Shown: positions 53,301-56,300 of the stretch, piece by piece
Layout: every line of letters starts with the position of its first letter
Numbering within the stretch: the first letter of the stretch is position 1
NCBI RefSeq assembly: GCF_046105845.1
Contig: NZ_CP151004.1
Origin: Escherichia coli
Lineage (GTDB): Bacteria > Pseudomonadota > Gammaproteobacteria > Enterobacterales > Enterobacteriaceae
Length of the DNA stretch: 64,000 nt
Direction: 5' to 3' (one strand)
Position numbers: made by a program

Positions 53301-56300
53301 TAAAGCGTTATTTGCTCCGGGCGGCGCGTTTTATTCACTGGTGATTAATTTCCAGATCCCTCATTTGCATCAACAAGTGTTGAAAGCGGCACCCATTGTC
53401 GCCCAACCAACGCCAATGGATGCGGTGTTTAAATTCGACCCTCTCTCGGCTGGCGGCACCGCTATTTTTATTGCGGCGATTATCTCTATCTTCATCCTCG
53501 GCGTGGGCATCAAGAAAGGGATTGGCGTCTTTGCCGAAACGCTAATTAGTCTGAAGTGGCCGATATTGTCGATTGGCATGGTGCTGGCGTTCGCCTTCGT
53601 CACCAACTATTCCGGTATGTCCACCACACTGGCGCTGGTACTGGCAGGTACAGGCGTGATGTTCCCGTTCTTTTCGCCATTCCTCGGCTGGCTGGGCGTA
53701 TTCCTTACCGGCTCGGACACCTCCTCTAACGCCCTGTTTGGTTCACTGCAATCGACCACGGCGCAGCAAATCAACGTCTCTGACACACTGCTGGTGGCAG
53801 CAAATACCAGCGGCGGCGTAACTGGCAAGATGATCTCCCCGCAATCTATCGCCGTGGCCTGCGCCGCGACGGGCATGGTGGGCCGGGAATCTGAACTGTT
53901 CCGCTACACCGTGAAGCACAGTCTGATTTTTGCCAGCGTTATCGGCATTATCACGCTGTTGCAGGCGTATGTGTTTACTGGGATGTTAGTTTCGTAAATC
54001 AATAAAGCCGGATGATCGTTAATATCATCCGGCTTCATTTACATTATTCTGTCTTATTAATAGGGGATTATTTCCTGCTTTATTATCCATGAAATAATAA
54101 TGTTTTACGTTCAGATAACCTGCTAAATAATTAAGAGCGTGAGAATATCTGTTTTTTTATCACGCAAAACAAGTCTGTATTAATTATGTTCGCTTGATGA
54201 GCAAACACCGTTCTATCTGTTGCTTTTGCAATCTTAATCGTTAAAACTACCAACAAATTTATATAGTTATGTTGTGAGAAATTGTTAATTTTTTGTTTGT
54301 TGAAATTTCGTAAAAATAAACAGACAGACATCAAATAGGGGTTATTCTTATAAATTTCACCTGTTTTTCTATCAGTGATGCCGTTTTATTAAGAATGGAG
54401 GAAGTTATTAGAGAAGATAAAGCATAAAACTATTTCTCCCAGTTACGAATTTTTTAACATTGTTTTGTCACTTGCGTTATTAATGAATAAGAAATTTAAA
54501 TATAAGAAATCGCTTTTAGCGGCTATTTTGAGCGCAACCCTGTTAGCCGGTTGTGATGGCGGTGGCTCCGGATCTTCCTCCGATACGCCGCCTGTAGATT
54601 CTGGAACAGGGTCTTTGCCGGAAGTGAAACCTGATCCAACACCAAACCCGGAGCCGACGCCTGAGCCAACGCCGGACCCAGAACCAACGCCGGAACCGAC
54701 ACCTGATCCAGAGCCAGAACCGGAGCCAGAACCTGTTCCTACGAAAACGGGTTATCTGACCCTGGGCGGAAGCCAGCGGGTAACTGGTGCTACCTGTAAT
54801 GGTGAATCCAGCGATGGCTTTACATTTACACCTGGTGAGGACGTTACTTGCGTGGCGGGTAACACGACAATTGCCACCTTCAACACTCAGTCAGAAGCTG
54901 CGCGTAGCCTGCGTGCGGTTGAAAAAGTGTCGTTTAGTCTTGAGGACGCGCAAGAACTGGCGGCTTCCGACAATAAGAAAAGCAATGCGGTTTCGCTGGT
55001 AACGTCCAGTAACAGCTGTCCGGCGGATACAGAACAGGTTTGCCTGACGTTCTCCTCGGTGATCGAGAGTAAACGTTTCGACTCGCTGTATAAGCAAATC
55101 GATCTGGCACCGGAAGAGTTCAAAAAGCTGGTCAATGAAGAGGTGGAAAACAATGCTGCGACCGATAAAGCGCCATCCACTCATACCTCACCGGTCGTGC
55201 CTGTCACCACGCCGGGAACAAAACCGGATCTGAACGCTTCCTTCGTGTCGGCTAACGCGGAACAGTTTTATCAGTATCAACCCACTGAAATCATTCTCTC
55301 TGAAGGTCGACTGGTCGATAGCCAGGGATATGGTGTTGCTGGCGTCAACTACTACACCAATTCAGGCCGTGGCGTGACAGGGGAAAATGGTGAATTTTCC
55401 TTTAGCTGGGGCGAAACCATCTCCTTTGGTATCGATACCTTTGAACTGGGGTCAGTGCGCGGCAATAAGTCGACCATTGCATTGACTGAACTGGGTGATG
55501 AAGTTCGCGGGGCGAATATCGATCAGCTTATTCATCGCTATTCGACGACCGGGCAAAATAATACCCGTGTTGTTCCGGACGATGTACGCAAGGTCTTTGC
55601 CGAATATCCCAACGTGATCAACGAGATTATCAATCTCTCGTTATCCAACGGTGCGACGCTGGATGAAGGTGAGCAAGTTGTTAATCTGCCAAACGAATTT
55701 ATTGAGCAGTTTAAGACGGGTCAAGCCAAAGAGATCGATACCGCGATTTGTGCGAAAACCGACGGTTGTAACGAGGCTCGCTGGTTCTCGCTGACGACGC
55801 GCAATGTTAATGACGGCCAGATTCAGGGCGTTATCAACAAGCTGTGGGGTGTGGATACAAGTTACAAATCTGTCAGCAAGTTCCATGTATTCCATGACTC
55901 CACCAACTTCTATGGCAGCACCGGTAATGCGCGCGGTCAGGCGGTGGTGAATATCTCTAACGCGGCCTTCCCGATTCTGATGGCGCGTAATGATAAAAAC
56001 TACTGGCTGGCCTTCGGCGAGAAACGCGCCTGGGATAAAAACGAGCTGGCGTACATTACGGAAGCGCCTTCTCTTGTTGAGCCGGAAAACGTTACGCGCG
56101 ATACCGCCACCTTTAACCTGCCGTTTATTTCGCTGGGGCAAGTCGGTGAGGGCAAACTGATGGTTATCGGTAACCCGCACTACAACAGCATTTTGCGTTG
56201 TCCGAACGGTTACAGCTGGAACGGGGGCGTTAATAAAGACGGGCAGTGTACGCTCAGCGGTGATTCAGATGACATGAAGCACTTCATGCAGAACGTACTG

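Follow-up and report, generated by a model that had tools for sequence, protein, structure and literature searches.

The AT-rich interval between glcA and sslE of Escherichia coli is very probably an H-NS/StpA-silenced, Fis-activated, thermoregulated promoter region

The closest described system is the promoter of the orthologous locus, yghJ (sslE), in Escherichia coli H10407 (ETEC) and UTI89 (UPEC). According to the part of Yang et al (2007) relayed by Tan et al (2016; PMC5012682), sslE-pppA-aspS-gspC-M is expressed as a single transcript from a promoter upstream of sslE, and H-NS and StpA bind this region, prevent open-complex formation, and repress at 22 °C compared with 37 °C. According to the same source, 5′ RACE and primer extension gave a single transcription start for sslE in two strains. 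Deletion of hns raised sslE mRNA 2.2- to 3.5-fold at 22 °C and by as much as 7.2-fold at 37 °C; Fis activates via a cluster of sites, F2, at −41 to −68, and is antagonistic to H-NS (PMC5012682). In UTI89, mutation of F2 abolished Fis activation (a drop from 411 to 173 Miller units), and mutation of another site, F1, was without effect on the reporter; sslE is also regulated positively by the ribosome-associated GTPase TypA, and both sslE expression and the strength of H-NS repression vary between strains (UTI89 versus EC958; PMC5012682). In the mouse gut, lux is expressed from a 484-bp fragment that Nesta et al (2014; PMC4014459) amplified from IHE3034 as the predicted promoter region of sslE, and yghJ is among the genes with multiple matches to primary and secondary H-NS motifs under looser criteria (Lang et al, 2007). 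Published H-NS/StpA binding or de-repression covers the orthologues in H10407, UTI89, EC958, and K-12. It is already known how the promoter is controlled: H-NS and StpA silence it at ambient temperature, and Fis activates it at 37 °C. Repression upon a shift to 22 °C reportedly amounts to 168-fold, and a stretch from −321 to +301 is said to be required.

The K-12 yghJ/glcA interval is also listed among 78 “promoter islands” (entry 3117080_374), and the corresponding table marks it as bound by H-NS in every ChIP-chip study compared (Panyukov & Ozoline, 2013; PMC3661553). Such islands are generally described as transcriptionally defective, whereas the sslE interval has a mapped productive promoter in other strains. 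The virF promoter of Shigella/EIEC, an analogue cited by Tan et al (PMC5012682), likewise combines AT-rich curved DNA and a weak promoter with H-NS repression at low temperature and Fis-aided relief at 37 °C, but its locus and sites are not homologous to those of sslE, where curvature is predicted to peak downstream of +1. The promoter of eltAB (heat-labile toxin) of ETEC, too, is repressed by H-NS at low temperature via curved DNA downstream of the start. It is plasmid-borne and thus a different locus, and its H-NS sites lie downstream only, but it is functionally linked to the sslE operon because heat-labile toxin is exported by the same secretion system.

The window analyzed here, a stretch of 64,000 nucleotides of E. 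coli DNA, carries glcB, glcA, sslE, pppA, gspS-beta, gspC, and gspD in this order; the locus was named via the annotation of near-identical records (RefSeq; K-12 and isolate AF40, the latter 99.3% identical to the present sequence). Gene order and length of the interval (484–485 bp) are the same as for the promoter of H10407/UTI89 (Tan et al, 2016; PMC5012682). The interval and the gene behind it are delimited as follows:

53998 to 54482, no strand: whole glcA–sslE intergenic region (485 bp, 70.5% A+T, GC 0.295).
54483 to 59033, plus strand: coding sequence of sslE (yghJ), as annotated by RefSeq in K-12 and AF40.

An earlier note had described a leader of 467 bp at 53998–54464. Its left edge is correct, as the stop codon of glcA occupies 53995–53997, but the right edge is to be placed at 54482 because the conserved, RefSeq-annotated start of sslE is ATG 54483; TTG 54465 is no more than the first codon behind a stop that could serve as a start, and it reads TGG in E. 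albertii. The N-terminus of SslE (MNKKFKYKKSLLAAILSATLLAGC) is a lipoprotein signal, and sslE is followed on its 3′ side by pppA, gspS-beta, gspC, and gspD. The interval can be regarded with high confidence, which extends to the full explanation given below, as the region that controls the sslE-pppA-gspS(beta)-gspC-M operon in cis; this operon encodes type II secretion system beta together with the lipoprotein SslE, a mucinase that is the substrate of this system. A predicted GalR site “in sslE” falls in the coding sequence, outside the interval. The interval is present in 4,099 of 5,426 complete E. coli genomes, with no feature annotated beneath it; the present allele is uncommon, being matched at 99% identity or more in just 2–3 of ∼4,100 genomes, most of which are at 90–95%. 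About one-quarter of the complete E. coli genomes are missing sslE and the gsp genes, and in some strains deletions bounded by IS4 and IS1 begin inside or beside the interval.

The composition of the interval is exceptional within the window. Its GC content (0.293 over 53998–54464; 0.295 up to the corrected edge) compares with 0.519 for the whole window, 0.53 for glcA, and 0.52 for sslE; among 485-bp windows across the 64 kb, just 0.12% reach the same AT-richness, and the lowest GC content of any of them (0.276) falls within the glcA–sslE region. The AT-rich tract extends ∼40 nt into sslE, and the operon genes otherwise have an ordinary GC content (∼0.52), AT-richness being confined to the control region. 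The interval holds twelve A or T runs that are 4 nt or longer, and its only ORFs are short (26, 21, and 67 aa). The longest (54131–54334, minus strand) spans a T-run and is frameshifted in other strains because the length of this run differs among them; none of the short ORFs is kept across the strains compared, and no conserved ORF was found in the interval. The description in the earlier note of a non-coding, A/T-tract-bearing gap without an ORF ahead of the sslE operon is thus borne out. The run and the most curved segment are located here:

54152 to 54158 (about −100), no strand: T7 run of variable length (5–8 T), from indel columns in an alignment of nine E. coli.
54340 to 54380 (about +85 to +125), no strand: peak of predicted intrinsic curvature (wedge model), with a local value above the 99th percentile of the window.

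The mean curvature predicted for the region places it among the top 1.7% of 485-bp windows with the full wedge model and among the top 0.6% with the AA-wedge alone, and bend.it likewise gives curvature for the strains of Tan et al (2016; PMC5012682). A clean 10.5-bp AA/TT periodicity peak was not found in the interval, nor was the H-NS 10-mer tCGATAAATT (Lang et al, 2007) enriched in it, with one match at two mismatches (54256) versus 1.7 expected from shuffles.

Regulatory sites were placed on the present allele starting from Fis. For its binding sites, a rule attributed to Shao et al (2008) was applied: G at −7, R at −3, Y at +3, and C at +7, with no A at −4 and no T at +4. The sites, and the promoter elements positioned relative to them, are the following:

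54109 to 54123, no strand: Fis consensus site F1 (GTTCAGATAACCTGC), with four of four critical Fis positions; centre at −139 here and at −138 in UTI89.
54188 to 54213 (about −67 to −42), no strand: predicted Fis region F2, with three overlapping 15-bp sites (54188–54202, 54192–54206, and 54199–54213), each matching at four of four positions.
54220 to 54225 (−35 to −30), plus strand: putative −35 hexamer TTGCTT, counted from +1 = 54255; three of six consensus matches.
54243 to 54248 (−12 to −7), plus strand: putative −10 hexamer AAAACT, counted from the same +1; three of six consensus matches, 17-bp spacer to the −35.
54255 (about ±2 nt), plus strand: putative transcription start (A), from the fit to published Fis-site distances.

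The start was deduced from the Fis-site positions stated in the text of Tan et al (2016; PMC5012682). With +1 at 54255, the centre of the lone Fis site of UTI89 comes to −138 and the triple site covers −67 to −42, compared with the published −138 and −41 to −68. F1 is the sole isolated site with a full match upstream of the cluster and agrees in position with the F1 of Tan et al (PMC5012682), whose active reporter fragment maps to 53998–54287 of the window and includes the putative start. The predicted 15-bp core sites adjoin the putative −35, which sits where the region varies least, and both hexamers are spaced canonically from the putative +1; the putative −10 reads AAAAAT in E. albertii, and its weak match to the consensus would be consistent with dependence on an activator. 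The only common polymorphism within F2 is at 54207, a non-critical position, which is T in UTI89 and A here, in strain 536, and in most other strains; this agrees with Tan et al (PMC5012682), since within F2 strains 536 and UTI89 differ at this position alone. The T-run near −100 is one T longer here than in UTI89. The allele as a whole is ∼94–96% identical to the K-12 and UTI89 types, with the differences falling mostly into +1 to +135 and −219 to −106, and F1, F2, and the putative −35 and −10 are kept. Because the Fis sites and both hexamers are identical to those of 536 and most aligned strains, the same regulation would be expected for the copy of the present strain; its like behaviour, as well as the exact coordinate of +1, is what we infer from this correspondence.

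Other placements were tried and rejected. Taking TATAGT (54262–54267) as the −10, with +1 near 54274, gave Fis-site distances at odds with the published ones; the hexamer occupies +8 to +13 of the preferred start. A secondary start from it may nevertheless exist, as the hexamer is conserved (GATAAT in E. albertii). A start at ∼54243, derived from Fis sites at 54098 and 54177 that match at three of four positions, left only two sites in F2, lacked a −10-like hexamer, and put the UTI89 F1 centre off by one. A stricter Fis rule (W at ±3) found a single site only and was judged wrong.

Together, these observations make it very likely that the AT-rich region is the H-NS/StpA-silenced, Fis-activated, and thermoregulated promoter region of the sslE operon. 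In the 5′ to 3′ direction it would consist of the glcA terminator, ∼220 bp of AT-rich DNA with F1 and F2, a weak sigma-70 promoter, and an AT-rich 5′ UTR of 228 nt. H-NS and StpA would coat the AT-rich curved DNA that flanks the promoter on either side (about −250 to about +270) and thereby stop RNA polymerase from forming open complexes, so that the operon would be silent at ambient temperature. At 37 °C silencing would weaken, and Fis bound to F2, directly upstream of the −35, would activate transcription and oppose H-NS. The suggestion in the earlier note of a heavily regulated, possibly silenced promoter is thus supported by the published H-NS/StpA, temperature, and Fis data on orthologous copies, for which the start mapping and the temperature and H-NS tests it proposed have already been published. 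Its term “leader” holds for the ∼228 nt of the putative 5′ UTR (54255–54482), but neither for the upstream promoter DNA nor for the terminator in the first ∼40 nt:

54005 to 54035, plus strand: intrinsic-terminator-like hairpin of glcA (12-bp stem, 7-nt loop), from a terminator scan.

This hairpin folds at −18.7 kcal/mol (z = −6.4 versus shuffles), is nearly invariant in E. coli, and belongs to glcA, outside the sslE leader.

Sequence diversity divides the region further. It was calculated among nine E. coli strains chosen along the identity ranking of the glcA–sslE region itself, and the 5′ UTR falls into two parts:

54255 to 54389 (+1 to +135), plus strand: proximal 5′ UTR, hypervariable (diversity 0.113).
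54390 to 54482 (+136 to +228), plus strand: distal 5′ UTR, a conserved block with GGAGG at 54397–54401 (diversity 0.026).

The value of the proximal part compares with 0.058 at third codon positions of glcA, and the promoter and Fis block (−105 to −1) is among the least variable stretches, with 0.028 versus 0.058 at synonymous sites. In the distal part, 6 of 93 sites vary among the nine strains, and GGAGG is invariant through to E. albertii. Two blocks, −105 to −1 and +136 to +228, are clearly constrained in these alignments. The glcA–sslE arrangement, including the junction and the AT-rich tract, is shared by E. albertii and Escherichia sp. E1V33 (cryptic clade), the two usable loci of the cross-species scan. 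One could speculate, at rather low probability, on a three-part layout in which the alleles of +1 to +135 set the degree of H-NS silencing in each lineage, and +136 to +228 binds a regulator, an sRNA, or a ribosome on standby, possibly as the target of TypA. If this were true, allelic variation in +1 to +135 would explain why some strains express SslE highly and others poorly (UTI89 versus EC958).

The long 5′ UTR might also act as a post-transcriptional switch beside H-NS, be it an RNA thermometer, a site for ribosome standby or sRNA binding, or a leader peptide. A leader of 228 nt with a constrained distal block and an invariant GGAGG, the lack of an obvious Shine-Dalgarno sequence in front of sslE, and the positive action of the ribosome-associated TypA would fit such a switch, as would an AU-rich hairpin (54447–54497) that encloses the sslE start codon in the present allele. 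However, this hairpin is not conserved (−6.9 kcal/mol here, −0.7 in UTI89, and −2.1 in E. albertii) and in none of the three does it beat shuffles. The whole leader does not fold better than shuffles either (z = +1.2), an Rfam search of the region gave no match at E ≤ 1, and no conserved structure was found in the +136 to +228 block. In the alignment fold, the covariation term was unfavourable, with compensatory changes in 3 of 74 pairs, a comparison of low power given its two usable cross-species loci. An RNA thermometer or structured leader was therefore rejected on all four counts (Rfam, folding, covariation, and start-codon hairpin). So was a leader peptide: the candidate ORF of 10 codons (ATG 54395 to TAA 54427, MEEVIREDKA) is without a Shine-Dalgarno sequence, and in E. 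albertii its ATG is lost and its frame changed. Deletion of hns, moreover, relieves the temperature repression, and a switch at the RNA level is improbable.

Alternatively, silencing might result from promoter density itself, with dense, overlapping promoter-like sites trapping RNA polymerase and H-NS unproductively. The K-12 orthologue is one of the islands discussed above, which are reported to bind RNA polymerase and H-NS and to yield little full-length RNA (PMC3661553); by the PlatProm definition, an island is a stretch of 300 bp or more with a density of eight or more predicted starts per 100 bp. A consensus promoter scan of the present interval, in which the putative promoter itself was not called, found 2 promoter-like sites versus 2.5 expected from composition, and a single mapped start in two strains, together with expression that is both strong and regulated, in UTI89 as well as in vivo, speaks against unproductive trapping. 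This explanation, which is largely compatible with H-NS/StpA silencing rather than truly exclusive of it, is very improbable in its own right. Least credible is the view that a simple constitutive promoter lies in a neutral AT-rich spacer, or in a scar bordering an acquired secretion island. Although +1 to +135 evolves at or above the synonymous rate, deletions bounded by insertion sequences begin in or beside the region in some strains, and the genes are missing from some genomes, two blocks are constrained, the junction and AT-rich tract are common to E. albertii and the cryptic clade, the control region alone is AT-rich next to operon genes of ordinary GC content, and the published dependence on hns, fis, and temperature contradicts a constitutive promoter, the very case that the earlier note had named as refuting its reading.

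To the H-NS/StpA- and Fis-controlled promoter known from orthologous copies, the analysis adds corrected boundaries, the positions of the published elements on the present allele, evidence against an RNA-level element, and the observation that the DNA just downstream of the start is unusually variable between lineages. SslE contributes to colonisation by degrading mucin and is a candidate for a broad E. coli vaccine, and the operon headed by its gene also exports heat-labile toxin; timing and strength of this promoter therefore bear on virulence and on antigen availability.

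The DNA between glcA and sslE (yghJ) is, beyond a hairpin at its glcA end, the published sslE regulatory region, which heads the sslE-pppA-gspS(beta)-gspC-M operon of type II secretion system beta. Unlike the truncated version in K-12, the secretion locus is intact on this stretch of E. coli chromosome.

Gene order around the glcA-sslE gap (window coordinates)
49789-51960, glcB
52315-53997, glcA
53998-54482, glcA-sslE gap
54483-59033, sslE
59181-59990, pppA
60056-60466, gspS-beta
60484-61443, gspC
61473-63533, gspD

The RefSeq start of sslE (K-12 and isolate AF40) is ATG 54483, from which a typical lipoprotein signal is encoded, and TTG 54465 is replaced by TGG in E. 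albertii. Because sslE starts at the ATG and not at the TTG, the non-coding interval is 53998-54482; the earlier note had placed its left edge correctly but, taking the TTG as the start, ended it at 54464. Further into the gene, the SslE N-terminus contains a Pro/Glu/Thr/Asp-rich repeat (PEPTPEPTPDPEPTPEP...; 54580-54740, A-over-T skew 0.34), and yghJ is among the genes listed as down-regulated without elongation factor P.

GC content of the gap was 0.295 over 485 bp, compared with 0.519 window-wide, and the 485-bp stretch of minimum GC in the 64 kb falls within it. As the neighboring genes have a GC content of 0.52-0.53, AT-richness is limited to the control region and does not extend to the operon. 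The gap has twelve A or T runs of 4 nt or longer, and the ORFs of 26, 21, and 67 aa are not conserved, the longest crossing a T-run of strain-dependent length. Thus, the AT-rich, A/T-tracted non-coding region described in the earlier note was confirmed. GC content is next lowest at two other places in the window: between gss and pitB (29742-30032; minimum 0.33) and where a fatty acyl-AMP ligase cluster and yghO diverge (43065-43408; minimum 0.305).

The hairpin at 54005-54035 (12-bp stem, −18.7 kcal/mol, z = −6.4 versus shuffles) looks like the glcA terminator, in which case the first part of the gap belongs to glcA. Some strains carry IS-bounded deletions that start right at this point: in NCTC86 (locus L009, 6140-7580; ~54039 in the window), IS4 lies ~40 bp past the glcA stop and sslE to part of gspK is deleted; in the pig isolate LCP30S3_I3 (L010, 6087-6840; ~53986), IS1 lies in the final glcA codons and sslE to part of gspC is deleted. 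About 270 genomes retain the glcA end while the leader is missing.

The claim that the promoter is heavily regulated and possibly silenced is borne out by published data from other strains, in which the suggested H-NS-binding, temperature, and start-mapping checks have essentially been carried out. According to the account of Yang et al. 2007 given in PMC5012682, sslE and 13 downstream genes form a single transcript, and the regulatory region is bound by H-NS and StpA, which block open-complex formation and repress at 22 °C relative to 37 °C. The start was mapped in UTI89 via 5′ RACE, in agreement with H10407 (Tan et al. 2016, PMC5012682). Deleting hns increased sslE mRNA 2.2-3.5-fold at 22 °C and, at 37 °C in a low-expressing strain, by as much as 7.2-fold (PMC5012682). 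A transposon screen identified Fis, antagonistic to H-NS, and TypA as positive regulators; of the two Fis sites, F2 (three overlapping consensus sites, −41..−68) abolished Fis activation when mutated, and F1 (centred at −138) was dispensable (PMC5012682). The 78 "promoter islands" of K-12 include the yghJ/glcA interval (Panyukov & Ozoline 2013, PMC3661553), which was coded H-NS-bound in every ChIP-chip study compared (PMC3661553). In the mouse intestine, luciferase was expressed from a 484-bp IHE3034 fragment that had been amplified as the predicted promoter region of sslE (Nesta et al. 2014, PMC4014459).

The promoter elements were mapped onto the window from published distances and primers. 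A Fis site has G at −7, R at −3, Y at +3, and C at +7, with neither A at −4 nor T at +4. When the promoter-containing part was scanned with this rule, four sites matched in full: a single isolated one (54109-54123) and three that overlap (54188-54213). The primers for the Tan et al. reporter fragment, which match perfectly in UTI89 and in a strain identical to it, delimit 53998-54287, and this places the start 5′ of 54287. With +1 set to the A of UTI89 equivalent to 54255, the lone site is centred at −138 (published, −138) and the triple site spans −67..−42 (published, −41..−68). We infer that transcription starts at 54255, give or take about 2 nt; a first guess near 54274 and an alternative near 54243 were rejected. 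Given this +1, the transcribed leader would comprise about 228 nt (54255-54482), and TTGCTT (−35..−30) and AAAACT (−12..−7), with a 17-bp spacer, would constitute a weak promoter, as expected where an activator is needed. Within F2, 536 differs from UTI89 only at 54207, a non-critical base, in agreement with Tan et al.

Of 5426 complete E. coli genomes, 4368 matched a 701-bp query across the gap (53900-54600), the annotation beneath always being glcA, a glycolate permease, and sslE, a lipoprotein metalloprotease. Since Escherichia sp. E1V33 and E. albertii also have the junction and the AT-rich tract, this arrangement is an old one in the genus. The window allele is rare: among about 4100 complete genomes, only 2-3 reach at least 99% identity (e.g., AF40 and dog strain 19KM1831), most being 90-95% identical and K-12 95.6% over the query (94.1% over the leader alone). 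In AF40, the closest complete genome (L002, 301-2652), yghO is interrupted by IS4; that of the window is intact (380 aa; 43409-44551), so AF40 is not the source of the window. A 1032-bp contig (L013, JAIJJM010000973.1) of a Collinsella sp.-labelled metagenome bin carries the coding sequence of the SslE N-terminus (94% identity) and is almost certainly E. coli contamination.

Nucleotide diversity among nine E. coli
glcA third codon positions, 0.058
−105..−1, Fis sites and promoter, 0.028
+1..+135 (54255-54389), 0.113
+136..+228, 0.026

Two constrained modules flank a hypervariable +1..+135, a contrast between sub-blocks that is more reliable than the comparison with flanking genes. Segment 54255-54389 is about twice as diverse as flanking-gene synonymous sites (0.113 versus 0.05-0.06), which is indicative only, as the small sample was picked along the identity ranking of the region and favors diversity there.

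No RNA-level reading of the leader is supported. Rfam gave no match in the gap at E ≤ 1, the only nearby one being the sRNA family C0719, matched over its full length in the glcB-glcA intergenic region (52015-52236, minus strand, antisense to the glc genes; 298 bits, E = 1e-78). Predicted folding of the leader was no stronger than that of shuffles (z = +1.2), and the covariation term of the alignment fold was unfavourable. In the window allele, the start codon lies within an AU-rich hairpin of −6.9 kcal/mol; UTI89 (−0.7) and E. albertii (−2.1) lack it, and in none of them does it beat shuffles. A 10-codon ORF (54395-54427, MEEVIREDKA) has no ribosome-binding site and is not preserved in E. albertii; it is overlapped in E. 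coli by a GGAGG (54397-54401), 82 nt 5′ of the start codon, that stays unchanged as far as E. albertii although its flanks vary. sslE itself has no recognisable Shine-Dalgarno sequence. The simplest account of the constraint on +136..+228 is that translation initiation requires an AU-rich region free of structure, or that H-NS makes contacts downstream.

AT-richness extends about 40 nt into sslE, so that H-NS substrate would be present on both sides of the promoter. Mean curvature of the region was in the top 1.7% of 485-bp windows by a wedge model (0.6% by an AA-wedge-only model), with the wedge-model maximum near 54350-54375, downstream of the start. Within the region, the 10-bp high-affinity H-NS motif was not enriched, and AA/TT periodicity gave no clean 10.5-bp signal.

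According to published data, expression and TypA dependence vary between strains. The regulation of the sslE promoter, of which the window carries a less common allele, is already known from other strains, and it resembles that of virF, also an H-NS-silenced, Fis-antagonised, thermoregulated virulence promoter, an analogy drawn by Tan et al. themselves (PMC5012682).
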